From contig JANLHL010000016.1 in assembly GCA_024654535.1 (NCBI GenBank), forward strand, positions 96,626 to 160,625: 64,000 nucleotides of DNA. The letters run 5' to 3'. Source of the stretch: Candidatus Roizmanbacteria bacterium (GTDB taxonomy: Bacteria; Patescibacteriota; Microgenomatia; UBA1406). Below the pieces are notes generated by a model. It saw only the letters and a list, made by a program, of their open reading frames with translations. It ran no database searches and was not told the origin of the DNA. Shown one piece after another: positions 4,724 through 21,897 of this stretch. Position 1 is the first letter of the stretch. Each line of letters opens with the position of its first letter. Position numbers and translations under genes: made by a program.

Positions 4724-5137
4724 ATGCAATCTAGAAAACTAAACATACTGTATATGCTTTTCTTTTTTGTTGCCATCTTTGTTTTTGGTATTGCTATTTT
4801 TGAAGACCAGATACGGGTACGTATACGGGCTACGAGCTCAGTTGTTTCGAGCGATACTTCGGTGTTACTGGTAGATAAGGTTGCGGCTGGCATAAACAAA
4901 GATTCTATCCGTGTTACTGTATTTGCAAGAAATGCCACTGGGGATACGCTTAATGGTGTTACTGTTCAAGTTCAAGCTACCTTAGGTACCGTACAACCTT
5001 CGAGCATGACGACTGATGTTATGGGTAAGGCTGTGTTTACTCTATCGTCTGCTGTTGGTGGTAAATCAATAATTACTGCAACTGTTGCCAATCAACCTTT
5101 GCCTCAAAAACTAACAATTCTGTTTTCATCAGACTAA
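4724..5137 (+). CDS. membrane-anchored protein with bacterial Ig-like (Big_1/invasin-type) domain
   Basis: N-terminal TM helix, then 'IRVTVFARNATGDTLNGVTVQVQATLGTV...TDVMGKAVFTLSS..GGKSIITATV', a typical Big_1 pattern. TATAAT at 4710-4715 lies 8 nt upstream. Confidence 0.6.
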   Translation: MQSRKLNILYMLFFFVAIFVFGIAIFEDQIRVRIRATSSVVSSDTSVLLVDKVAAGINKDSIRVTVFARNATGDTLNGVTVQVQATLGTVQPSSMTTDVMGKAVFTLSSAVGGKSIITATVANQPLPQKLTILFSSD

Positions 5138-7996: not shown

Positions 7997-9031
7997 ATGT
8001 ATTTATCTAGACAAAAAAAGGACATTCCAAAATCGAGTTTTGTATGGAACTTTGATACAGAAGCAGAACGCATATTTAACACATGCATATCTACTGCGAG
8101 TGGATTTTTTAATAGCAAAGGCTTTTTGGTACTTCCATCCCTTATAAAAGGCGACGCGTCGTGTGTCTATCTACCCCATATTGCATACGAGTCAATCCCA
8201 AACTTTTGGACAAAGCTAGCACATTTAGATGACAGTAAATACATATATATGCCAAAATTAATAGGAACTAAACTCAAGACACTTTTAGCAACATTACCCA
8301 CCCTGGACCCAAAGGAGGTATCTGCAAAAGAATGTGAGTGGAAGAAAGTAGAAGGTATATTCTGGAATTATGTAAACGAACTTGCAATTGAGAGCACACT
8401 TTTAATTCGATCACTTGAAGTACGTATGACTCAATATGGCACTATTTCTTCTTATCTCTATGAAAAAAATAGAGAAAACCATCTTGTTTGTTACTTAAGG
8501 CACGATATGTCAGTCGCACATTTAGCTGAAATAATACTGACTGCACTACTGAGACCTATGCAGAAATCACTTCATTTGCCCTGGGAAACAACCGAAGGTA
8601 TGGTAGATATCCTCCTTACAAAATCTCCCCTTGCAAAATATTTCACTAATTATAAACCAACGCTCTATGCAACAAGCCACATTCAAAAAAGTCTTGAAAT
8701 GGTATCAAAAAAATATGTAGCACAACTTGGTCTAAAGCTTACTAAGCCATTCACACTCAAAAATAACACAGTCTATTACCACGCAAAGCCCTTGTCTCAG
8801 AGCCTTACTAAATCGCAGGAGATGATATTAAAACATTGTCTTCAAAATGAAAACAGCATAGTTGAATATGATACGCTCGGGACACTTTTGTGGCATTCTG
8901 ATGAACAATTCTCATTGTGGGCAATTAATAAACAGCTGCAACGCTTAATTGATAACTTAAAAAGTTTAGGGGTTTCTTCAGACTTGTTTCACATAGTCCG
9001 CGGTAGGGGATTTATGCTTACAAACATATAA
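7997..9031 (+). CDS. hypothetical protein with C-terminal OmpR/PhoB-type winged-helix DNA-binding domain
   Basis: The last ~75 aa, 'LTKSQEMILKHCLQNENSIVEYDTLGTLLWH...WAINKQLQRLIDNLK...HIVRGRGFML', follow the trans_reg_C pattern. No receiver domain precedes it. TGCTATAAT at 7977-7985 lies 11 nt upstream. Confidence 0.55.
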   Translation: MYLSRQKKDIPKSSFVWNFDTEAERIFNTCISTASGFFNSKGFLVLPSLIKGDASCVYLPHIAYESIPNFWTKLAHLDDSKYIYMPKLIGTKLKTLLATLPTLDPKEVSAKECEWKKVEGIFWNYVNELAIESTLLIRSLEVRMTQYGTISSYLYEKNRENHLVCYLRHDMSVAHLAEIILTALLRPMQKSLHLPWETTEGMVDILLTKSPLAKYFTNYKPTLYATSHIQKSLEMVSKKYVAQLGLKLTKPFTLKNNTVYYHAKPLSQSLTKSQEMILKHCLQNENSIVEYDTLGTLLWHSDEQFSLWAINKQLQRLIDNLKSLGVSSDLFHIVRGRGFMLTNI

Positions 9032-9070
9032 ATAGTTGGGTACGAGCTGTCCGTAGTATATAATCAGCAC

Positions 9071-10123
9071 ATGAACCAGGACTTTTTATCTACGGACTAC
9101 GAACTTTCAGAAGATCGCATTGCGAATGCACCAGCTCATAAACGAGGTAGTGATCGGTTGTTTATATACGATACTGTTTCGGATACAATCCAACATGATA
9201 TATTTTCAAATATTCATGCCTATCTTCCAAAAAATACGTTGTGTGTATTAAATAAATCTTCAGTTGTCCCAGCGAGAATACGGCTCAACAAAAGCAGTGG
9301 TGGCTCAGTAGAGGTCTTATTTTTGTTAAATGAAGACATGCCAGCGAATTTACTTCGAATAATGGTCGACCGCAAAGTGACAGAAGGCATAACGTTAACG
9401 ACAAGTAAAAATATAGTAATAGGGCACGTGAAAGAACACAGTGAAAAGAGTATTTTTACACTTCAATTAACGATGTCACGTTCGAAACTTATGCAACTAT
9501 TGCTGCACGAAGGCACTGCTCCCTTACCAAAATATATCAAACATTCACCCCTCAGTATGGATGAGCGAATACGTAGATATCAAACAGTATATGCCCAAAA
9601 AAACAACCAGCTTGGTTCTATTGCAGCCCCTACAGCCGGGCTGCATTTTACAAAGAAAATAATTGAAGATCTAATACGGTACGGTACAGATATACAATAT
9701 GTGACGCTTCACGTAGGTCTTGGAACATTTGCTCCACTTACTCAAGAGCAAATGGAGACTAGAAAACTTCATGAAGAATTGTACAGTATTTCACAGAACA
9801 CTCTCGACGCATTGGAGGGTGCAAAGACACAACGCAAACCTATATTGGCGGTTGGAACCACTACAGTACGCACGCTGGAGTCGTATGCCAGTACACATGT
9901 TTCTACTGGTTCTACAGATATATTTATTTATCCTCCCTATTCTTTTTATTATCCAACGATGCTGTTAACTAATTTTCATTTGCCACATACATCACTTATG
10001 CTGTTAGTTCAAGCTTACTTGCAATATAAAAAGTCAAAAAGAAATTTGGTACAGTTGTACAGAGAAGCAATAAAGGGTACGTATATGTTTTATTCGTTTG
10101 GTGACTCTATGCTCATACTATGA
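9071..10123 (+). CDS. queA: S-adenosylmethionine:tRNA ribosyltransferase-isomerase
   Basis: N-terminal 'DYELSEDRIANAPAHKRGSDRL', plus 'GTTTVRTLES' and 'FYSFGDSMLI' as in QueA. ATGA overlap with tgt. Confidence 0.9.
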   Translation: MNQDFLSTDYELSEDRIANAPAHKRGSDRLFIYDTVSDTIQHDIFSNIHAYLPKNTLCVLNKSSVVPARIRLNKSSGGSVEVLFLLNEDMPANLLRIMVDRKVTEGITLTTSKNIVIGHVKEHSEKSIFTLQLTMSRSKLMQLLLHEGTAPLPKYIKHSPLSMDERIRRYQTVYAQKNNQLGSIAAPTAGLHFTKKIIEDLIRYGTDIQYVTLHVGLGTFAPLTQEQMETRKLHEELYSISQNTLDALEGAKTQRKPILAVGTTTVRTLESYASTHVSTGSTDIFIYPPYSFYYPTMLLTNFHLPHTSLMLLVQAYLQYKKSKRNLVQLYREAIKGTYMFYSFGDSMLIL

Positions 10124-13671: not shown

Positions 13672-13938
13672 ATGTATTATACATACGTACTTATAAGCAC
13701 GAAGAACAAGAGATTATATGTTGGCTCAACAGATAATCTAAAGAGGAGAATTAAAGAACACAATGATGGTATTGGTGGAGTTTATACTCGCATAAACAGA
13801 CCATTTACACTACTGTTCTACGAAGCATATATTTCACAATTGGACGCAAAGAAACAGGAAAAGTTTTATAAAACTGGCTATGGTAGAGAAGTATTGCGTG
13901 GTAAAATAGAGAGTAGCTTGATTGAAGTAACTACTTAA
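13672..13938 (+). CDS. GIY-YIG nuclease superfamily protein (small UPF0213/YhbQ-like type)
   Basis: 'YYTYVLISTKNKRLYVGSTDNLKRRIKEHN' matches GIY...YVG...R...H of the GIY-YIG fold. 88 aa. Confidence 0.8.
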   Translation: MYYTYVLISTKNKRLYVGSTDNLKRRIKEHNDGIGGVYTRINRPFTLLFYEAYISQLDAKKQEKFYKTGYGREVLRGKIESSLIEVTT

Positions 13939-13940
13939 TT

Positions 13941-13961
<21 letters not shown>
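13894..13961 (+). repeat. right copy of perfect 68-bp direct repeat
   Basis: Covers the last 45 nt of the GIY-YIG ORF, 2 nt, and the first 21 nt of the functional tRNA-Gln. Confidence 0.85.
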
Positions 13962-14019
<58 letters not shown>

Positions 14020-14145
14020 CTCTAGCCTATTGCAAGACTCTATTTGTATTACTACCCTTGAGAATTAAACAGTTCTGTATAAAATACATGTTTCTTCATT
14101 AAGATTATATTATCTAAATAACTATTTATAGTATTATTAAGACTT

Positions 14146-14679
14146 ATGGAGAGTATATTTTCATTCTTAGGAAAAAGAGGAAGTAGTGATGCAACAAAAG
14201 TATATACACCTAGGGATGTTGAACGAATAAGAAGTAGGAATGAAAACCTTATTGTTCTTCAAAATAATATAGTCTCTATAAATTTTGCTGAAACACAATC
14301 GTTCACAGACCCTAGTCAAGCATCAATGTGCTTAGTAGTTCTCGCAAGTAACGGAATACACGGAGCACTTTGTCACTTACAAACTGATGTTGATGTAGAA
14401 AAAATTGGTGACGGTTTATCCAAACTATTTCCTCAGGTAGGTGTTCCAATCTGTTTAGCTGGTGGTGAAACTGATACAAGCGATAATCTACTCGCAAATA
14501 CAACAGCAGCACTTAAAAAAAGAGGATTTCTGGTGTCGACTGATCCAGAACATGCTGACATTCTAGGAAAATTGATTTACAGACAAAGTACTTTGTATAG
14601 TAATAAAGTTATGGTTCGTAATATGCCATATATTGGCCAAGCATCCGTAAGAACTCTCACTTTTCCAAGTCCAAAGTAA
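14146..14679 (+). CDS. hypothetical protein, 177 aa (weak CheD-like deamidase pattern)
   Basis: 'SMCLVVLASNGIHGALCHLQT' and 'ICLAGGE...LKKRGFLV' loosely resemble the Cys/His core and GGA motif layout of CheD. Speculative. Confidence 0.45.
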   Translation: MESIFSFLGKRGSSDATKVYTPRDVERIRSRNENLIVLQNNIVSINFAETQSFTDPSQASMCLVVLASNGIHGALCHLQTDVDVEKIGDGLSKLFPQVGVPICLAGGETDTSDNLLANTTAALKKRGFLVSTDPEHADILGKLIYRQSTLYSNKVMVRNMPYIGQASVRTLTFPSPK

Positions 14680-14707
14680 GTTAATATTCTCTTACTTGAG
14701 AGTAAAG

Positions 14708-14770
14708 GATTCTAACTTCTTCTACTTTCTGCAGCCAGCTCTTTCTAGCCTATTATAAGGCTCTATGTGT
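14708..14770 (+). repeat. decayed copy (site B) of tRNA-Gln 3' end plus downstream flank
   Basis: GCCAGCT...TCTAGCCTATT..AAG.CTCTAT.TGT matches 14011-14047 at about 30/37 by eye. Its left half matches 18498-18527 at about 25/30. Confidence 0.6.
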
Positions 14771-14819
14771 TTACCCAAAAGCATATAATATTTATGATGT
14801 ATGTGATAAACTCGATTTT

Positions 14820-15584
14820 GTGAATAGATATAATCAAACACTCAAGATTGCCACTAGTCAATTTCAAGTTTCAGAAGATATAGCTAGTAACACTAAGTAT
14901 ATTAAAAAACATATTGCACAGGCTTCTCGTCTACACGCTGATGTTATTCATTTTCCAGAAATGTCTTTATCAGGGTATAACACCACAATAGAAGATATAG
15001 ATTGGGGATTACTCAATAGATCGCTTGACGAAGTTAGATTACTCGCAAAAAAATATAACATGTATGTCGTGTTAGGATTACACCACATAAGTGATCAACC
15101 TGGAAAAGCTTTCGATACTACACTGTTACTATCCAACAAAGGCCAAACAGTAGGAAAATATAGTAAACAAAAATTGTATGGATCAGAGAAAAATAGATTT
15201 ATACCAGAGAAAAACTTCTTAACGTACAAAATTAAAGGAGTTAAATGCGGTTTCTTAATTAGTTATGATTCATGCTTTCCTGAACTATTTCTTGTCTACA
15301 AAAAACAAGGTATAAAACTGCTTTTCCTCTCGTATTATAATGCCAACAGTGCGAAGCCTAGAAACTCTATGGATGCGTTAATGAAAGCGCAATTTATTAC
15401 ACGAGCCACAGATAGTCAGATGTATATATCAGGGAGCAATTCATCTTCTAAGTATTCAAGAATGCCATCGTCATTTGTAAGACCAGATGGCAGACTAACC
15501 ACTCTTAAAAGACATACGCCGGGAATTTTGCTATCTGATTATCCTGGAAGTAAACTTGGCTGGATCTACGACAATGGGGAGTAG
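14820..15584 (+). CDS. carbon-nitrogen hydrolase (nitrilase superfamily) protein, GTG start
   Basis: 'VIHFPEMSLSGY' (Glu), 'KYSKQKLYG' (Lys) and 'GFLISYDSCFPE' (Cys) lie in the order of the CN-hydrolase E-K-C triad. Confidence 0.8.
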   Translation: MNRYNQTLKIATSQFQVSEDIASNTKYIKKHIAQASRLHADVIHFPEMSLSGYNTTIEDIDWGLLNRSLDEVRLLAKKYNMYVVLGLHHISDQPGKAFDTTLLLSNKGQTVGKYSKQKLYGSEKNRFIPEKNFLTYKIKGVKCGFLISYDSCFPELFLVYKKQGIKLLFLSYYNANSAKPRNSMDALMKAQFITRATDSQMYISGSNSSSKYSRMPSSFVRPDGRLTTLKRHTPGILLSDYPGSKLGWIYDNGE

Positions 15585-15597
15585 GTTGCGAACATAC

Positions 15598-16116
15598 TTA
15601 AAGGTCTATGGTGTATCTTACTTCGTGTAACTCAAATCCTTCTCTTGGTTCTATTTTTGTTTTTCCCTCTGCTCTCCATCCCCTTGATTCATACCACGAT
15701 CTTGTTTGTAGGTTAGTACCAAGCACCCAGAGTGTGGCTTTTGTGTATCCTTCAACTCTCAACTTCTCTAGGAAGAAATTAATCATTTTTGTCCCTACTC
15801 CTTTACCTTGCCAATGAGGATGAACATATATCCCACCCAATTCTCCAACATCAGATTCAACATCCGTATCTCTATTTTTTCCTCCCTGAATCCAACCTAC
15901 TAGTATTCCGTCACTTTCTGCTACAAATATATGCGTATCTAACTTCGGTTTCCTAAGCATTTCTTCCCAAACTTTGGCTCTTTCATCTATAGACATAGAA
16001 TTTAAATAGGCATCTGGTACTTGACATTTATAGGCTTTTTGCCACATTTTTACATGAACAGTGGCAATTCCCAAGGCATCCTTAACCTCTGCATTTCTAA
16101 TCAGTATTTTTGTCAT
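15598..16116 (-). CDS. GNAT family N-acetyltransferase
   Basis: 'HPHWQGKGVGTKMINFFLE' is the acetyl-CoA binding Q/RxxGxG/A motif. TGATATAAT lies 6 nt upstream on the minus strand (16131-16123). Confidence 0.85.
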   Translation of the reverse strand: MTKILIRNAEVKDALGIATVHVKMWQKAYKCQVPDAYLNSMSIDERAKVWEEMLRKPKLDTHIFVAESDGILVGWIQGGKNRDTDVESDVGELGGIYVHPHWQGKGVGTKMINFFLEKLRVEGYTKATLWVLGTNLQTRSWYESRGWRAEGKTKIEPREGFELHEVRYTIDL

Positions 16117-16405
16117 AGTTTAATTATATCAGTAGGGTACTTATCTTTACTCAAGATATAGTTAGCCTAAATAATATGATTTAACAAATTAGTTCTAATG
16201 TACTCTAGAAGTCCCAACACCTCTTCCGCTAAGCCGTAAGACATGGCGAATTATTTTCTCAACTAAAATAACTACTCACGGTCACGTACGCAATTACTAT
16301 ACTTAAATTTTGAAAAGTGCTATACTGTATACAGTAGAACAAATAAGACATGTTCAACTCCTCAACTCTGTAGCGAATTATTAAAGTCTGATTTAAAAAA
16401 AGATT

Positions 16406-17638
16406 ATGAATACACAACTAAACAAAACCAAAAAATATGATACGGCAAGTAAACGTTATGAAATAAGTTCCTATATTTCTTCGGTAGATACTGTTACAAA
16501 ATGCAATGCTAACGACACTCTGGGATCTGCTTTACCTTTAGTAAAGTCAAGTCATTCACCCTTATTTGTTTTTGATACGGAAAATGAATTTCTCGGTATT
16601 ATTTCTCCTTACCAAGCACTCTATACACATAAGCAACCATATACAACAAAAGTTTCCTCTATTGCATCTAAGCCCCCATATATGACAAAAGAAACACAAT
16701 TGTATGAAGTTGCTTCATTCATGCTCGAAAATAGAGTCTATGTTCTCCCGTTATTTGATGAAAGCAAACAAATTGTGGGGGTTATTCATGCTAAGGATGT
16801 ATTTCAAAATCTCATTAAAGATGAGGATTTGTTAACGCTCATCAGTTCTACTATAAAAGTACACGAACCAGTAACTGCCAGTAATAATTCTTCTGTCGGA
16901 GATATTTTCCAAATTATGCGGGATAAGAATGTTTCACGAGTTGTATTGATTGATGATAACGGCCTACTATCTGGTATCGTTTCACGAAAAGATTTGCATA
17001 GAACCTTTATGAAACCTACCGAAAAGCTGCGATTTGGAAAAAATAGTAATCCAAAAACAGATCGTGCTTTTGATAAAGAAAAGGAATATAGAAAAGATGA
17101 TCCAGTTAAAAAATATGCAACGGAGAATGTCTACACATTGCCCTATAAGACCGTGCAAAAGAAGATGCTCAAGCAGCTTGTAACATCAGAACACAATAGC
17201 GTTATTTTTATTGATAAATATAAGAAACCGGTTGGAGTTTTATCAATGCGCGATATTTTAACTGGACTTGCATCATTGCGTCCTATGAAGACAATAAATC
17301 TACTTATGACAAATCCAACGAGTAATGTTTCTGAAGAAGATATAAAAAAAGCAAAAGAACAACTAATCAGGTTTAGTCAGAAGATGTACAGTAGAATCGC
17401 AATTGATAAAATTGAAGTAACTTTCGAAGAACCAAAAACACCCAGTGGAGGTAGCATTCTGTTCATAACTACACTTGTCATAAGCCCGTTTGCTGGAGTT
17501 AAAATAGTTTCAAAAACGAAAAGTAGATCATTTTTAGACTCGATTCGTTCTGCCATAGATCAAATAGAGAAACAAGAAAGACGAAGTGGTAAATCAAAAG
17601 CGAATTCAAAACACTTAAAAAATAAAACTAATCAGTAG
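16406..17638 (+). CDS. four-CBS-domain protein with C-terminal HPF/YfiA (ribosomal S30AE)-like domain
   Basis: Four CBS-like repeats are marked by 'FLGIISPYQAL', 'IVGVIHAKDVFQNL', 'LSGIVSRKDLHRTF' and 'PVGVLSMRDILTGL'. The last ~105 aa follow the HPF beta-alpha-beta-beta-beta-alpha pattern and end in 'SFLDSIRSAIDQIEKQERRSGKSK' (compare the D.Y.AID...DKL.RQL.K.K helix). Confidence 0.7.
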   Translation: MNTQLNKTKKYDTASKRYEISSYISSVDTVTKCNANDTLGSALPLVKSSHSPLFVFDTENEFLGIISPYQALYTHKQPYTTKVSSIASKPPYMTKETQLYEVASFMLENRVYVLPLFDESKQIVGVIHAKDVFQNLIKDEDLLTLISSTIKVHEPVTASNNSSVGDIFQIMRDKNVSRVVLIDDNGLLSGIVSRKDLHRTFMKPTEKLRFGKNSNPKTDRAFDKEKEYRKDDPVKKYATENVYTLPYKTVQKKMLKQLVTSEHNSVIFIDKYKKPVGVLSMRDILTGLASLRPMKTINLLMTNPTSNVSEEDIKKAKEQLIRFSQKMYSRIAIDKIEVTFEEPKTPSGGSILFITTLVISPFAGVKIVSKTKSRSFLDSIRSAIDQIEKQERRSGKSKANSKHLKNKTNQ

Positions 17639-17660
17639 GTCCTCAATAAAGATAAATCAT

Positions 17661-17712
17661 AGTTCCAATGTTTTCCAGTAGTTACAGCCAGCTAAATCCA
17701 ACCTATTGTATG
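17661..17712 (+). repeat. decayed copy (site D) of the tRNA-Gln 3'-end-like repeat
   Basis: 'AGTTCCAATGTTTTCCAGTAGTTACAGCCAGCTAAATCCAACCTATTGTATGG' shares CAGCCAGCT-N8-CCTATT with sites A and B. Its left half is about 60% identical to B by eye. Confidence 0.45.
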
Positions 17713-17833
17713 GTTTTATATTGTTGTCTAAAACTTTTTTTATATGAGACTGTTTCTTCATTTGGAAGCGAGTAGTTAAGCAACTATTGCCAAATATACT
17801 TACTATGTATATAGTTAAGCTGAAGAATTTAAA

Positions 17834-17911
17834 ATGACAATAAAAACAAGAAAATTTCAAGAATCAGACCTAATACAGATTAAAAATATTTCTAATGAAA
17901 AATCTATTTAA
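17834..17911 (+). pseudogene. 25-codon stub resembling a GNAT N-terminus
   Basis: 'MTIKTRKFQESDLIQIKNISNEKSI*' parallels 'IIFRKYQNKDKEQVKKVV' of the intact GNAT 36 nt downstream. It may be a remnant of a disrupted paralog. Confidence 0.25.
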
Positions 17912-17946
17912 GTATAACTTGGATTATTTTTCGATACTGTATAAAT

Positions 17947-18417
17947 ATGAGCAATATTATATTTAGAAAATACCAAAACAAAGACAAAGAGCAAGTTAAA
18001 AAAGTAGTATTGTCAGCTATGCAAGATATACGCCCAGGATATAGCTTAGACAGTGAAGAAAGAAATAGAGATTTAGACGATATCCAAAAGCAGTATAAAG
18101 ACAAAGGAATATTTTGGGTTGCAGTAGACAAGGGAACTGTTATAGGTACAGTTGGGATACTAGAAGATAGTAATAATATTGTATGGCTAAAACGTCTATT
18201 TTTATTAAATACATATCGAAATAAAGGCATCGGTAAAACTTTACTGTATATAGCACTTGAGCATTGTAGTAATTCACAAATAAGAAAAATTCGCGCAGTA
18301 ACATCTATACATGCGGCAATTGCAGAAAAAATGTTACAAAAAAATGGTTTTAAATTGTATAAAAGAGAAAAAGATTTACTATTTTATGAAAAAAAGTTAA
18401 ATAAGTTTTTTGTATAA
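17947..18417 (+). CDS. GNAT family N-acetyltransferase
   Basis: 'YRNKGIGKTLLYIALEH' acetyl-CoA motif. 156 aa. Confidence 0.85.
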   Translation: MSNIIFRKYQNKDKEQVKKVVLSAMQDIRPGYSLDSEERNRDLDDIQKQYKDKGIFWVAVDKGTVIGTVGILEDSNNIVWLKRLFLLNTYRNKGIGKTLLYIALEHCSNSQIRKIRAVTSIHAAIAEKMLQKNGFKLYKREKDLLFYEKKLNKFFV

Positions 18418-18442
18418 TCTCCTCATGAAACCAGGAATTGAC
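18412..18442 (+). repeat. left copy of perfect 31-bp direct repeat (Nudix promoter + first 6 codons)
   Basis: GTATAATCTCCTCATGAAACCAGGAATTGAC is identical to 20797-20827. Here it opens only an 11-codon ORF (MKPGIDEYSVT*). Confidence 0.85.
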
Positions 18443-18497
18443 GAATATTCAGTTACATGAAGGAATATTTACTGGATTCGCGCACTATATAGAAAAT

Positions 18498-18527
18498 AGT
18501 TCTAACTTCTTCTACCCTCTGCGGCCA
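18498..18527 (+). repeat. partial copy (site C) of the tRNA-Gln 3'-end-like repeat
   Basis: 'AGTTCTAACTTCTTCTACCCTCTGCGGCCA' vs 14708-14737 'GATTCTAACTTCTTCTACTTTCTGCAGCCA', about 25/30 by eye. Confidence 0.5.
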
Positions 18528-18605
18528 TTATTGTTTAGATCGTTACAATATTCTTCCTCAAAAACATGGGTTGCGGATGTTCGAACGCTCTTATATAATT
18601 TCATT

Positions 18606-19496
18606 ATGGTTCAAGTTCCTACTCTTAAATTTACTTCAGGTCGTCAAATTCCAGTACTGGGCTTAGGTACATGGCTTATTGGAGGAGACCACAATGGAAG
18701 GAATCCTCAAAATGACGACGAAGGACAAATCAGAAGCTTAAAATATGCAATAGATAATGGCTTTACTTTTATTAGAACCGCTCATAATTATGCTGATGGA
18801 TATTGTGAAGAACTTGTAGGAAGAGCAATTGAATCATATGATCGTAGTAAGCTATTTTTAGCATCTGCCGCTAATCAGAAATGGGCATACGACAAGGAGA
18901 CTTTAATTAAAGTAGCAAAGGGTAGTCTAAAAAGTCTGAAAACTGATTACTTTGATCTATTCATGATTGGTGCGGTTAACCCTAACTATTCCATAAAGCC
19001 AATTCTTGACGGATTAATTTACCTTCAAGATCGCGGATTAGCTAGAGATATTGGAGTAAGTAATTATCGTCTACCCGAACTCAAGGCCGCATATGAATAT
19101 CTTGGTAAGAAGTTAGTCTATAGTGAAATGCATTATAATCTTATAATCCGTGAGCCTGAACTTAGTGGAACTTTGGATTATTGTAAAAAAAATAATATTA
19201 TTCTTAGTGCGTATCGTCCACTTCAGTTGGGGCAACTTTCTAAGCCAGGTATCGTTCTACTTGATCAGATGGTTAAAAAATATAGTAAATCTCAATCACA
19301 AATAGCTCTTAAATGGCTCCTGCAAAAAGATGGTGTAATTACAATGACGAAGGCTCTAAATACTAAACATATTATCGAAGACCTCGATCTATTTGGCTGG
19401 AATCTCGAGAAAGAAGATATTAAAAAATTAGATAAGGATTTCCCAATTCAAATAAGGCTTAGCGACTGTTCAGAACCAAGAGAATTTAAATTTTAA
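18606..19496 (+). CDS. aldo/keto reductase family oxidoreductase
   Basis: Start at 'MVQVPTLKFTSGRQIPVLGLGTW', the typical AKR N-terminus. The upstream TTG-extended part of the ORF covers repeat scars and is rejected. Confidence 0.85.
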   Translation: MVQVPTLKFTSGRQIPVLGLGTWLIGGDHNGRNPQNDDEGQIRSLKYAIDNGFTFIRTAHNYADGYCEELVGRAIESYDRSKLFLASAANQKWAYDKETLIKVAKGSLKSLKTDYFDLFMIGAVNPNYSIKPILDGLIYLQDRGLARDIGVSNYRLPELKAAYEYLGKKLVYSEMHYNLIIREPELSGTLDYCKKNNIILSAYRPLQLGQLSKPGIVLLDQMVKKYSKSQSQIALKWLLQKDGVITMTKALNTKHIIEDLDLFGWNLEKEDIKKLDKDFPIQIRLSDCSEPREFKF

Positions 19497-19498
19497 TA

Positions 19499-20029
19499 CT
19501 AGTTTAGAACTTTATATTTCAATACTATTGTACCCCGACTATTTAGTCTTTTCATGCTCTTAAGTTGTAGTTGTATTTTAAGTTCGGCTTCATCAATAAA
19601 CGAAACTCCACTACCAAAGATGAGAGGTTCTACCGTAAGGTGTATTTCATTTACCAATTCTTCTTGTAAGAATTGAAAGTTAGTTGTACTTCCTCCTACT
19701 AGTAACATCTGTGAGTAGCCTTCATCGTTTAATTCTTTTACAAGATTTTTTGGAGTCTTGCTCATGAATTCTAGCTGCCCTGGCACTTCGTCCGATATAT
19801 AGTTATGTGGGTCTTTAGTCAATACAATCCTGCGCTGATTTTTGTTTAAACGAATAATATTTTTTGCAGCTTCATATGTCTTTCTTCCCATAACGATTAA
19901 ACTACTTTTACTGATATATTTCATAAATGCCGATTTATCCTCTTTCGATGTCCATTTATATATATCAGGGTCATTGGTATCCGTTATCTTCCCATTCATC
20001 GTACTTACCATCATGATAATTATTTTCAT
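19499..20029 (-). CDS. dihydrofolate reductase-like / RibD C-terminal domain reductase
   Basis: 'IMMVSTMNGKIT...SSLIVMGRKTYEA...LLVGGSTTNFQFL' is the typical RibD_C/DHFR-fold layout. It lies 1 nt downstream of the yhhQ-like gene. Confidence 0.75.
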   Translation of the reverse strand: MKIIIMMVSTMNGKITDTNDPDIYKWTSKEDKSAFMKYISKSSLIVMGRKTYEAAKNIIRLNKNQRRIVLTKDPHNYISDEVPGQLEFMSKTPKNLVKELNDEGYSQMLLVGGSTTNFQFLQEELVNEIHLTVEPLIFGSGVSFIDEAELKIQLQLKSMKRLNSRGTIVLKYKVLN

Positions 20030-20030
20030 A

Positions 20031-20693
20031 TTATGTGTCTTTCCTTAACCATTTAACTCCTAAATAAACAAATGGAGTTTCTATTACAGACAAAATACAT
20101 TTAAGAAACCAGTAGGGCAGAATAAGCCCAATTAAAAAAGTAGAATTCGAATGGAAAGGAATGCTCAAATCATAGAAAGCGAGAGACATAAATATAAATG
20201 TGTCTAAAAATTGAGAAATAATATTTGAAACATTATTTCTAAACCACAATGCTTTGCTTCCAAATTTATTTCTAATCTTTACAAAAATCAAAACGTCCAT
20301 AAGATCAGCTATCCCAAATGCTGTTAGACTAGCTATGGCGATACGTGTCGATTGCTTAAATATGAGATCGTACGCATCTTCACTCTTTAGAAAACGAGTA
20401 GATGGGGTAAGTGTAGTAAAAAAAAATGAAAATAGAGATAACAAGAAAATCATAACTAACCCAGACCTAACAATACTTCTTGTTTTTTCTGCTCCGTATA
20501 CCTCAGTTATTACGTCATTAATAGTAAATACTAATGGCAGTAAAAATATCGATACGCTCGCGTTGAGTTTTATAAATGGTGTGTTCAGTAATGAGAATGT
20601 CTTTACACCCATAACCTCAGACGCAAGAATACAAAAAATGTATAAAGAAATAAGAAAATCTAACTTATTTATAGCTAAACTTTTAATTTTCAT
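20031..20693 (-). CDS. yhhQ: queuosine-precursor transporter (YhhQ/DUF165, VUT family)
   Basis: Polytopic protein with 'LVFTINDVITEVYGAEKTR', matching the conserved YhhQ motif. Confidence 0.8.
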   Translation of the reverse strand: MKIKSLAINKLDFLISLYIFCILASEVMGVKTFSLLNTPFIKLNASVSIFLLPLVFTINDVITEVYGAEKTRSIVRSGLVMIFLLSLFSFFFTTLTPSTRFLKSEDAYDLIFKQSTRIAIASLTAFGIADLMDVLIFVKIRNKFGSKALWFRNNVSNIISQFLDTFIFMSLAFYDLSIPFHSNSTFLIGLILPYWFLKCILSVIETPFVYLGVKWLRKDT

Positions 20694-20796
20694 TATGTTA
20701 TGTATTTGTAATATATGAGCATACTTTATAAGTAAAATTCGCGCAAAAAATCATGGTGGATAGTATAGCAATTCACAAAACTTTTATACATATTAG

Positions 20797-20827
20797 GTAT
20801 AATCTCCTCATGAAACCAGGAATTGAC
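20797..20827 (+). repeat. right copy of perfect 31-bp direct repeat
   Basis: Contains TATAAT (20798-20803) and the real Nudix start ATG at 20810. Confidence 0.85.
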
Positions 20828-21247
20828 TACATTGGCATTTCGGTTGGAGCAATGATATTTAATGATGAGAATGAACTCTTTCTTACAAAAAGAGGCGAGC
20901 ACGTCACTAATGAGCGTGGTTGTTGGGAAATTCCGGGCGGTAAAGTCGAGTTTGGAGAAACATTACAACAGGCAATCAAACGAGAAATACAAGAAGAATA
21001 TGGCGTTGCTATAGAACTTATTCAACAATTTCCTGCTGCTAATCATCTGATCCCAAATGAAAAGCAACATTGGGTACCAACAACCTTTCTTGCACAGTTT
21101 AAGAATAGTCAAAAGCCAAAAATACTTGAGCCTGATAAATGCGATGGAATAGGGTGGTTTCCACTCAATAAATTACCAACACCTCTTTCCATTATTACCA
21201 AAATAGACATAGAATACTATCAGTATGTATTAAAACCAATTAAATAA
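20810..21247 (+). CDS. NUDIX hydrolase
   Basis: Nudix box 'GGKVEFGETLQQAIKREIQEEYG'. Start set at MKPGIDYIG, 6 nt after TATAAT. Confidence 0.8.
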   Translation: MKPGIDYIGISVGAMIFNDENELFLTKRGEHVTNERGCWEIPGGKVEFGETLQQAIKREIQEEYGVAIELIQQFPAANHLIPNEKQHWVPTTFLAQFKNSQKPKILEPDKCDGIGWFPLNKLPTPLSIITKIDIEYYQYVLKPIK

Positions 21248-21270
21248 GTTTTTACAAAAATGCTCCAATC

Positions 21271-21897
21271 ATGAAATACTATCTATCTTCATACAGACTT
21301 GGAAACGAAACAAATATGTTAGAAAAACTCATAGCTGAGACATCTGGTAAATTTGCGTACATTCCCAACGCTCTCGATTTCACCAGTGCAGATCCTATTC
21401 GCAGGGAAAAGCATATCTCTAGTGACATGAGCGATTTTGAGAGTCATGGCGCATCGATAGAGCTACTTGACCTGAAGAAGTACTTTGGAGATATGGATAA
21501 ACTGAAAAACACACTCAGTAACTATGGTGGGGTTTATGTGAGCGGTGGTAATACGTTTGTGCTTCGACAGGCAATGAAGTTGAGTGGTCTCGATAAGATA
21601 CTATTGGAACTTGCAGACAAATCGAACTTTCTCTATGTTGCATATAGCGCAGGAGTCTGCGTACTCACTCCATCGTTAAAACCATACGCAATTACAGATG
21701 ACGCTAACAATTTTCCGTATAAGCAGATGAATGAGCAAGTGTGGGATGGGCTCAATATCCTCAGTTTTGCTTTCGAACCGCATTACCAATCAGAACACCC
21801 AGAATCGGCAAGCACCGATAAAGAAATACAACATTGTATAGATAGCAAAATTCTGTTTAAAGCCTATCGAGATGGAGAAGTGTTGATAAAGGAGTGA
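21271..21897 (+). CDS. peptidase S51 family (dipeptidase E-like)
   Basis: 'VYVSGGNTFVLRQAM' and the nucleophile context 'VAYSAGVCVL' are typical of S51. Confidence 0.75.
   Translation: MKYYLSSYRLGNETNMLEKLIAETSGKFAYIPNALDFTSADPIRREKHISSDMSDFESHGASIELLDLKKYFGDMDKLKNTLSNYGGVYVSGGNTFVLRQAMKLSGLDKILLELADKSNFLYVAYSAGVCVLTPSLKPYAITDDANNFPYKQMNEQVWDGLNILSFAFEPHYQSEHPESASTDKEIQHCIDSKILFKAYRDGEVLIKE

Follow-up and report, generated by a model that had tools for sequence, protein, structure and literature searches.

Does a bacterium possess a ribosome hibernation factor of the kind that was defined on archaeal hosts? This question is raised by one gene within a 64,000-nucleotide stretch of DNA (the window) from a Candidatus Roizmanbacteria bacterium, which belongs to the Patescibacteria (candidate phyla radiation, CPR). 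The gene encodes a protein in which four CBS domains, the CBS tetrad, are followed by an HPF/YfiA-like domain. We consider, with a probability of about 0.7, that this fusion gene is a Patescibacteria/CPR member of the HibA/AHA ribosome hibernation factor type, a type that is already known. An earlier reading made from the letters of the DNA and its open reading frames (the sequence-only reading) had noticed the fusion and had stated that no characterised example was known. The latter statement is outdated: HibA (PMC13324472) and AHA (PMC12934967), which were characterised by cryo-electron microscopy (cryo-EM) and genetics, have the same architecture.

HibA (Nat Commun 2026, PMC13324472) and AHA (bioRxiv 2026, PMC12934967) are archaeal hibernation factors in which a CBS tetrad at the N-terminus is joined to an HPF/RaiA domain at the C-terminus. 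The latter domain occupies the mRNA/tRNA channel of the 30S subunit and the CBS module lies on the 50S subunit, and knockouts show slower recovery from stationary phase and ribosome depletion (PMC13324472, PMC12934967).

Overall Architecture

The gene and the parts of its product are listed below; the CBS boundaries are approximate.

16406..17638, plus strand: CBS-tetrad/HPF fusion gene, an open reading frame (ORF) of 410 amino acids plus stop; probable CPR member of the HibA/AHA type
16484..16645, plus strand: CBS1, about residues 27-80; degenerate ribose-binding motif GIISPYQ, without Asp (from Pfam, AlphaFold and the HibA alignment)
16667..16825, plus strand: CBS2, about residues 88-140; motif GVIHAKD, weakly conserved (from Pfam and AlphaFold)
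16853..17011, plus strand: CBS3, about residues 150-202; canonical G-h-h-[ST]-x-x-D motif, GIVSRKD; likely adenine-nucleotide site
17012..17113, plus strand: extended loop joining CBS3 to CBS4, conserved, KPTEKLRFGKNSNPKTDRAFDKEKEYRKDDPVKKY, residues 203-236; counterpart of the loop of HibA/AHA that enters the peptidyl-transferase centre (PTC loop)
17114..17275, plus strand: CBS4, about residues 237-290; motif GVLSMRD (from Pfam and AlphaFold)
17294..17590, plus strand: HPF/RaiA-fold domain, β-α-β-β-β-α, residues 297-395; HibA-type insertions at about 302-309 (β1-α1) and 346-352 (β2-β3 hairpin)
17591..17635, plus strand: C-terminal tail, SGKSKANSKHLKNKTNQ; basic, of low model confidence

The CBS-HPF fusion indeed exists, and its C-terminal domain was correctly assigned to HPF. 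The covalent fusion of the CBS tetrad to an HPF/YfiA-like domain, as claimed in the sequence-only reading, is supported by the structure, by profiles and by homology to the HPF domain of ribosome-bound HibA. That reading had made its case depend on S30AE/HPF similarity of the C-terminal region, and both structural and profile matches of this kind were found. Its placement of the gene was also right: the ORF starts with the ATG at 16406 and ends with the stop codon at 17636-17638 on the plus strand (ORF list). The start codon is unambiguous, because an in-frame stop lies three codons before the ATG (segment +_16397_17635).

The identical protein at NCBI is named [quoted passage not shown] (MAG, metagenome-assembled genome) and comes from a 356,648-bp contig. 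The NCBIfam scan of the protein gave generic CBS-containing families only, all far under their cutoffs. The codon-position identities between the gene and its 85%-identical relative (locus L008) were 89.8 / 93.4 / 81.0%, which fit purifying selection on the fusion gene.

Homology to HibA

Five profiles were used in the comparisons. A1 was made from 24 close homologs, and A2 is the C-terminal slice of A1; A3 represents the CPR family (66 sequences), A4 is a broad C-terminal profile (62 sequences), and A5 represents Thermococcales HibA. The HibA orthologs were gathered by a search seeded with the HibA stretch from the PDB alignment, which returned Thermococcales only.

The top PDB sequence match of the whole protein was 9SR9_H, with an E-value (E) of 7e-17 for the single sequence and 1.8e-24 for the family profile. 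Chain H of 9SR9 is Pyrococcus abyssi HibA. The hhalign comparison of A3 with A5 gave 354 collinear columns, running from CBS1 through the last helix (99.9%, E 3e-32). When the CPR and HibA proteins were compared by module, the N-terminal part gave 99.8% (E 3e-29) and the C-terminal part gave 91% (E 1e-6). A homolog search with A3 re-found the same CPR family and reached no member from Archaea.

HPF/RaiA-Fold Domain

The predicted structure is decisive for the HPF assignment. The C-terminal slice A2 was modelled by AlphaFold with a predicted local distance difference test score (pLDDT) of 82.5. The model has strands at 5-8, 40-48, 60-68 and 74-80 and helices at 17-37 and 83-101 in the numbering of the slice; in the numbering of the protein, the strands are at 298-301, 333-341, 353-361 and 367-373, and the helices are at 310-330 and 376-394. 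The secondary structure that had been assigned by eye to the last ~105 residues in the sequence-only reading agrees with this model almost residue by residue. In the Foldseek search against the PDB, ranks 1-19 were all ribosome-bound HPF, RaiA, chloroplast pY/PSRP1, mycobacterial MPY/RafH or protein Y, with a probability of 1.00. The target-normalized TM-score (TMt) of these matches was 0.51-0.76, except for the 255-residue RafH (0.28), and the root-mean-square deviation was 2.5-5.9 Å. Folds unrelated to HPF started only at E > 0.01 in this list.

The sequence comparisons point in the same direction when the profile is broad. When A4 was compared with PDB sequences, HPF, RaiA and protein Y were ranked first (E 2.5e-4 to 5.6e-4), and the C-terminus of HibA was found at E 0.023. 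The broadened profile gave 83% (E 8e-6) against E. coli HPF in hhalign. A weak match of the full-length protein to PF02482 (Ribosomal_S30AE) spans residues 319-393. Of the 24 close homologs, 14 match PF02482 individually, the best at 2.3e-5. Two stand-alone relatives, P0072 (27.5 bits) and P0098 (25.7 bits), exceed the gathering cutoff of PF02482; they were retrieved with the C-terminal profile of the family at E 3e-12 and 2e-8, respectively. By sequence they tie the fusion protein to PF02482 through a transitive link only.

The helix α2 carries the motif A-x-x-x-[IL]-[EA]-[KR]-Q, which is common to HPF, RaiA, HibA and the CPR family. In addition, the HibA insertions 283-SAL-285 and 324-KFRGVHL-330 align with residues 306-308 and 346-352 of the fusion protein, and E. 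coli HPF and RaiA are gapped at both sites. The dimerisation domain of long HPF (PF16321) gave no Pfam match up to E 10, and the protein stops 15 residues past the HPF domain.

These last 15 residues form the C-terminal tail. The AlphaFold model gives it a pLDDT of 40 over the final block, residues 401-410, and values under 50 at residues 404-410. The motif RRSGxSxxxSxH in the tail is semi-conserved among close homologs. In HibA, the C-terminal end is located at the mRNA exit channel (PMC13324472); any role of the tail in the fusion protein would be putative.

CBS Tetrad and Nucleotide Site

Four stretches of the protein matched the Pfam CBS family (PF00571) at E 2.2e-30, which correspond to two Bateman modules, and the full-length AlphaFold model, with a pLDDT of 80, agrees with them. 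The four CBS-like repeats seen in the sequence-only reading were thus confirmed by both Pfam and AlphaFold. In the fold search, the closest solved folds of the tetrad were SriA, SSO3205-AMP, MJ1225, Dri and AMPKγ. In the sequence search of the PDB, the bit scores of the tetrad were 89 for HibA, 70 for Dri and 40 for AMPKγ.

The conservation of residues was counted over 66 diverse members of the family. CBS3 and CBS4 keep the ribose-phosphate motif G-h-h-[ST]-x-x-D, whereas CBS1 and CBS2 are degenerate. In CBS1, Gly64 is found in 65/66 members and no Asp is conserved. In CBS2, Gly125 is found in 55/66 and Asp131 in only 17/66. CBS3, which contains the top-scoring Pfam CBS stretch (residues 153-199), has Gly190 in 57, Ser or Thr at position 193 in 53, Arg194 in 60 and Asp196 in 62 members. 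The corresponding numbers for CBS4 are 63 for Pro275, 63 for Ser/Thr280, 34 for Asp283 (Asn in 9 others) and 61 for Leu285.

In HibA and AHA, AMP or ATP is bound at the CBS3/CBS4 interface (PMC13324472, PMC12934967). AHA binds two AMPs there (PMC12934967), and HibA binds AMP with a dissociation constant of 12 µM, tighter than ADP or ATP (PMC13324472). In the CBS-only ARC complex, AMP is coordinated by Thr/Asp pairs. The retention of the motif in CBS3 and CBS4 agrees with the nucleotide site of HibA/AHA and with the Thr/Asp logic of ARC. Judging from these residues, adenine nucleotides (AMP, ADP or ATP) are probably bound at CBS3/CBS4 of the fusion protein. Gating of the fusion protein by energy charge, as suggested in the sequence-only reading, is a plausible further step, although we would lean against it; it is unproven even for HibA, and ATP-triggered release from the ribosome has been reported only for the ARC complex.

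Loop between CBS3 and CBS4

In HibA and AHA, a long loop after CBS3 enters the peptidyl-transferase centre around A2602 (PMC13324472, PMC12934967). The PTC loop of HibA (190-207, FIKPRFKAQYGELAGEKIPPFS) pairs with residues 201-235 of the fusion protein, and the extended loop itself (203-236) pairs with residues 188-211 of HibA. The motif K-P-x-x-K-x-x-[FY]-G at the base of the loop is common to HibA and the CPR family.

This loop ranks among the most conserved segments of the 66 members: Pro204 is found in 52, Arg/Lys207 in 56, Arg209 in 58, Phe/Tyr210 in 56, Phe/Tyr222 in 58, Glu225 in 57 and Arg229 in 50. Residues 204-226 have pLDDT values below 50 and form the sole internal stretch of low confidence in the full-length model. 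Such low values are expected of a loop that becomes ordered only on its target.

Proposed Function and Alternative Explanations

By homology to HibA and AHA, the C-terminal HPF/RaiA-fold domain would lie in the mRNA/tRNA channel of the 30S subunit and cover the A and P sites, and the CBS tetrad at the N-terminus would bind the 50S subunit, with the CBS3-CBS4 loop reaching the peptidyl-transferase centre. With the two domains placed on separate subunits in this way, a single polypeptide would clamp the 30S and 50S subunits together. The clamp would block binding of mRNA and tRNA and protect the idle 70S ribosome, and AMP, ADP or ATP at CBS3/CBS4 may bias binding or release according to the energy state. 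That the protein binds ribosomes in CPR bacteria, binds nucleotides and is gated by energy charge is proposed here on the model of the archaeal factors.

Several points weigh against this assignment. Ribosome binding and a hibernation role have been shown experimentally only for the archaeal proteins (PMC13324472, PMC12934967). HibA touches the archaeal-specific uL16 loop, the uS19 tail and eS28, which bacteria lack, and no clear effect of AMP or ATP on ribosome binding of HibA was seen (PMC13324472). The loop of the CPR proteins is ~9 residues longer than that of HibA and differs in sequence, and its insertion into the PTC is suggested by analogy; HhpR, a CBS-tetrad transcription factor, has a similar loop at the same place. 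The HPF signal emerges only via a broadened profile or structure. The sequence-only reading had named CBS and Ribosomal_S30AE as the families to look for in Pfam; CBS was recovered in its four stretches, but PF02482 remained below the threshold for the fusion protein (the full-length protein scored 14.6 bits and the isolated domain 17.8 bits, with a cutoff of 23.7). The narrow profile A2 found no HPF among PDB sequences, its best match being Alba (E 0.056), and its hhalign comparison with E. coli HPF was insignificant (1.3%).

These points bear on what else the protein might be. It might be an independent bacterial chimera, in which a bacterial HPF/RaiA was fused to a generic CBS tetrad and became convergent with HibA/AHA; it would still be a hibernation factor. 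A preprint describes fusions of bacterial HPF with CBS, Csp or SigE that are scattered, spread by horizontal gene transfer and located at variable loci (10.1101/2025.11.04.686544). The fusion gene also stands at variable genomic positions among its relatives, and bacterial HPF/RaiA (E about 3e-4) outscored P. abyssi HibA (0.023) in the A4 search. Convergence is, however, hard to reconcile with the same domain order and the single collinear alignment of 354 columns with HibA, with a tetrad that is closest to that of HibA among solved structures (by the bit scores given above), with the shared position and motif of the loop, or with the two HibA-type insertions that are missing in E. coli HPF and RaiA. 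Moreover, Souza et al. put CPR sequences within the archaeal AHA cluster (PMC12934967). We therefore regard independent assembly as improbable. About equally improbable is a non-ribosomal CBS-tetrad regulator, such as an HhpR-like transcription factor, whose C-terminal α/β domain binds another nucleic acid or a protein. One homolog was named "predicted transcriptional regulator" by JGI, the loop of HhpR is at the equivalent place, folds of the double-stranded RNA-binding domain (dsRBD) type appear lower in the Foldseek list (ranks 32-42), and Alba was the best PDB match of the narrow profile. HhpR itself, however, is without an HPF domain, and the top 19 folds all belong to the HPF family with a probability of 1.00, whereas the dsRBD matches have E > 0.06 and a TM-score of about 0.4. 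The [IL]-[EA]-[KR]-Q motif of α2 shared with HPF, RaiA and HibA, as well as the full-length homology to a protein that was seen on ribosomes by cryo-EM, also speak for a ribosomal role.

A transferred gene that is decaying or functionless in its host would explain why the fusion gene lies between repeats resembling a tRNA 3' end, in a variable region whose G+C content (0.29-0.37) is lower than that of the nearest flanks on the two sides (about 0.38-0.43). The ORF is intact, however, and the gene has diverged from L008 least at the second and most at the third codon positions. The family is diverse (107 clusters at 50% identity) with conserved motifs, and the promoter-proximal block is conserved. 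Decay thus seems very improbable, the least credible of these explanations, and membership in the HibA/AHA type remains the preferred assignment.

Distribution and Origin of the Family

A HMMER scan of 1.84 billion representatives with A2 gave matches at E ≤ 1e-3 to 107 clusters at 50% identity. The CPR family thus comprises at least 107 such clusters; most members have 370-420 residues with the HPF-like domain at the C-terminus, and some stand alone with about 100-130 residues. The pairwise identity within the family goes down to about 22%, and that between members and HibA is about 15-24%. Named cluster members come from Roizmanbacteria, Daviesbacteria, Microgenomates and generic Patescibacteria. 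Only seven loci were found by family-specific motifs in species-representative genomes; their labels are Patescibacteria, Saccharibacteria, WWE3 and Shapirobacteria, in addition to two MAGs auto-labelled "uncultured Gammaproteobacteria". All credible taxonomic labels of the family are Patescibacteria.

The labels of these two MAGs, L005 (CAYUGO010000029.1) and L006 (CAZOSM010000004.1), are at odds with all other members and are probably due to mislabelling or mis-binning. One sequence, P0058 (HLL60528.1), was considered as an archaeal member on account of its label "Ca. Nitrosocosmicus" and was rejected: it lies on a 4.4-kb contig, and its nearest neighbour, P0054, is from Patescibacteria. Mis-binning probably accounts for the label.

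Because the domain order and the insertions are the same in both, the CPR fusion seems to share its origin with the archaeal one. As far as the sequences indicate, this would be explained most simply by inter-domain transfer followed by diversification within the CPR. It is rather unlikely, to our mind, that the CPR proteins are an old and diverse bacterial clade and that the fusion is not simply an archaeal invention; this could mean either an ancient transfer with re-tuning to the bacterial ribosome or a CPR-like route by which the HPF domain or the whole fusion came to Archaea. The number of clusters, the identity of ~22%, the occurrence of paralogs in one contig and the nested stand-alone HPF derivatives are the basis for this possibility. 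If the ancient-transfer variant were true, the longer PTC loop, and insertions kept without their archaeal partners, would be its marks.

The paralogs were observed in L011. Two CBS-HPF genes, at 8001-9224 and 13690-14853, lie 4.5 kb apart with a histidine kinase gene between them; their products are 52% and 43% identical to the fusion protein of the window. This recalls the multiple AHA paralogs in archaeal genomes.

HPF-like proteins of about 105-130 residues were found as P0061, P0064, P0065 (from Ca. Microgenomates), P0067, P0072, P0076, P0098, P0107, P0115 and P0118. Some resemble particular fused subgroups: P0072 is similar to P0075, and P0098 to P0084. These stand-alone proteins may have arisen by loss of the CBS module, as has been proposed for Archaea. 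Some of the clusters may be fragments, because at least one of them also has a 379-residue member.

A cultivated CPR bacterium requires canonical RaiA for growth, and therefore CPR bacteria are not generally without HPF-type factors. Within the 64-kb window, no second HPF-like ORF was found, and neither uS19 nor uL16 is encoded.

Upstream Region

16228..16405, plus strand: conserved upstream block, with a putative extended -10 element TGCTATACT at 16318-16326 and the untranslated leader

The block shared with L008 extends over 16228-17680, which comprises the gene and about 180 nucleotides upstream; the homology ends upstream of about 16228. The sequence TGCTATACT, given at 16318-16326 in the sequence-only reading, is present there. 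No full sigma-70 promoter was scored at this site, which shows only the extended -10-like TGnTATACT. Positions 16237-16356 are 85-95% identical to L008, compared with 81% at the third codon positions of the gene.

The ~80-nucleotide leader had also been pointed out in the sequence-only reading. As a structured element it found no support. Its minimum free energy was no better than that of shuffled sequences (z +0.75), and positions 16357-16396 are 68% identical to L008, below the promoter-proximal block, in a comparison of two distinct sequences. Rfam gave no credible match in the leader region; the single match, to the snoRNA sn2841, was at the level of chance (E 0.22; 19 bits, with a cutoff of 45) and lay beyond the leader, at 16089-16135 of the minus strand.

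A terminator-like hairpin with a T-run (GCCGTAAGACATGGC GAATTATTTT) is located at 16233-16257 on the plus strand, where the conserved block begins on its left side. It is kept in L008 with wobble-compatible changes. No plus-strand gene lies upstream of this hairpin in the window, and the adjoining gene is divergent.

Locus Context

17685..17723, plus strand: repeat copy resembling the 3' end of tRNA-Gln (family D1), immediately 3' of the fusion gene, where the homology to the L008 locus stops

A tRNA-Gln(UUG) gene is located at 13941-14014. A repeat of 39 nucleotides, D1, starts inside its 3' end (14009-14047) and is found again at 14732-14770 and at 17685-17723. The core pattern of D1 had 3 matches in the window, where 0 were expected. 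The copies resemble degenerate 3' halves of tRNA-Gln (T-arm-like GTTCNAA … CAGCCA) with a common tail of ~30 nucleotides. The repeat stretches extend over 14686-14770 and 17660-17723, and weaker copies are seen at 18476-18527, at about 16190-16225 and, in L008, upstream of the gene (5095-5130). They sit in intergenic spaces downstream of tRNA-Gln and flank small gene cassettes, among them the CBS-HPF gene. No integrase was seen. In another relative, a tRNA-Gln(CUG) gene lies 1.5 kb upstream of the CBS-HPF copy. The pattern resembles that of a tRNA-linked zone in which small cassettes accrete. The gene had been described in the sequence-only reading as part of a tRNA-Gln island; this holds in so far as the repeats flank it, but the gene and its promoter region form a conserved unit that is shared with L008.

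In L008, the next gene after the CBS-HPF gene encodes Peptidase_S51 and is 95% identical to 21271-21897 of the window. Relative to L008, the window therefore carries a 3.6-kb insertion (17680-21270), which has a G+C content of 0.29-0.35 and genes for GNAT, aldo/keto reductase, RibD_C/DHFR-like, Vut_1 and NUDIX proteins. The aldo/keto reductase ORF (18438-19496) has its mechanical start at the TTG at 18438, yet the weaker repeat copy covers 18476-18527. Its start is more likely an internal Met (MVQVPTLKF…, about 18606), where the aldo/keto reductase domain begins.

No conserved gene neighbourhood was found among distant members of the family. Operon-based inference is therefore impossible. In several relatives of 50-70% identity, a small ORF of low complexity (~101 amino acids, DDDVLQNAHQMGIAPNxDxEHP) ends about 6-10 nucleotides 5' of the CBS-HPF gene. 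It is located at about 5700-5990 in L001, at about 2600-2890 in L002 and at 7689-7994 in L011/L012. Neither the window nor L008 has this ORF, and no Pfam family is on record for it. Its product could be a partner protein.

Implications

Hibernation by CBS-HPF proteins was not established before 2025-2026, and then for Archaea alone, and a bacterial member is now well supported by homology. The fusion itself is no longer unprecedented; the main interest is an archaeal-type factor in a bacterium. The CPR protein offers a natural test of how far the HibA/AHA mechanism depends on archaeal-specific features of the ribosome, and the insertions of the HPF domain that contact the uS19 tail and uS12 in Archaea are kept in it. 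It is also relevant to the dispute on where Archaea obtained their HPF domain, that is, by inheritance from the last universal common ancestor or transfer from Bacteria. To our knowledge, almost nothing has been established about the regulation of translation in CPR bacteria, and the fusion protein is a candidate translation brake for these ultrasmall cells when they are starved and non-dividing. It is tractable: what it does to ribosomes of E. coli or Bacillus could be measured directly, with and without AMP or ATP.

Comparison with Known Systems

HibA of Pyrococcus abyssi (PAB0961) and Thermococcus (PDB 9SR9-9SRF, 9T7H; Madru et al., PMC13324472) is similar to the fusion protein in architecture and in size (392 and 410 residues, respectively). 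Both proteins have the long loop after CBS3, the two insertions in the HPF domain and the G-h-h-[ST]-x-x-D motif in CBS3 and CBS4. The identity between them is only about 19-22%. The host of the fusion protein is a bacterium, whose ribosomes are without the uL16 loop, the uS19 tail extension and eS28, and the CPR protein is known from sequence. Its loop, ~9 residues longer, has a conserved motif of its own, RF…F-D-x-E-K-x-x-R.

The 406-residue "CBS domain-containing protein" in PDB entries 9L96, 9L98, 9L9C and 9L9V (chain a, a chain identifier of ribosome style) matches the CBS region of the fusion protein at E 2e-11. Its length suggests another factor of the HibA/AHA type. No paper citing the 9L96 entry was found in the literature.

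Bacterial HPF, RaiA (YfiA) and pY (PF02482, COG1544) share with the fusion protein the fold, at a TM-score of 0.6-0.76, the α2 motif and, presumably, the site on the 30S subunit. They differ from it in that the fusion protein has additional residues between β1 and α1 and within the hairpin of β2 and β3, a fused CBS tetrad and a sequence similarity below the threshold. Compared with bacterial long HPF, it is without the PF16321 dimerisation domain, which drives 100S formation. The chimeric bacterial HPF proteins (HPF with CBS, Csp or SigE; bioRxiv 10.1101/2025.11.04.686544) are alike by description, being fusions with sensor or stress domains that vary in location and spread by horizontal gene transfer. 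However, they are divergent homologs of long HPF that swapped their C-terminal domain for another, and these isoforms are said to coexist with canonical HPF (10.1101/2025.11.04.686544).

Among CBS-tetrad proteins, the HhpR-like transcription factors (CM-3) are distant: NF053603 (HhpR) gave 36.8 bits against a cutoff of 520, and the HPF domain is present in the fusion protein and absent in HhpR. The CBS-only archaeal factors Dri (9E6Q), SriA-D (9ZNF/9ZNG/9ZNI) and ARC-A/P have the closest tetrad folds and give strong sequence matches. Unlike the fusion protein, they are without an HPF domain, and they bind in other orientations or to other subunits. The ATP-triggered release of ARC is a precedent for energy gating.

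AHA of Haloferax volcanii (HVO_2384; Souza et al., PMC12934967) is similar by description, with a CBS tetrad, a C-terminal HPF domain and "loop 3" of CBS3 in the PTC. Souza et al. mention in one sentence a small number of AHA-like sequences from Patescibacteria that fall within the archaeal cluster (PMC12934967). The fusion gene is evidently among these sequences. With at least 107 clusters at 50% identity, the CPR set described here exceeds "a small number", and the clade is far larger than this passing mention suggests.

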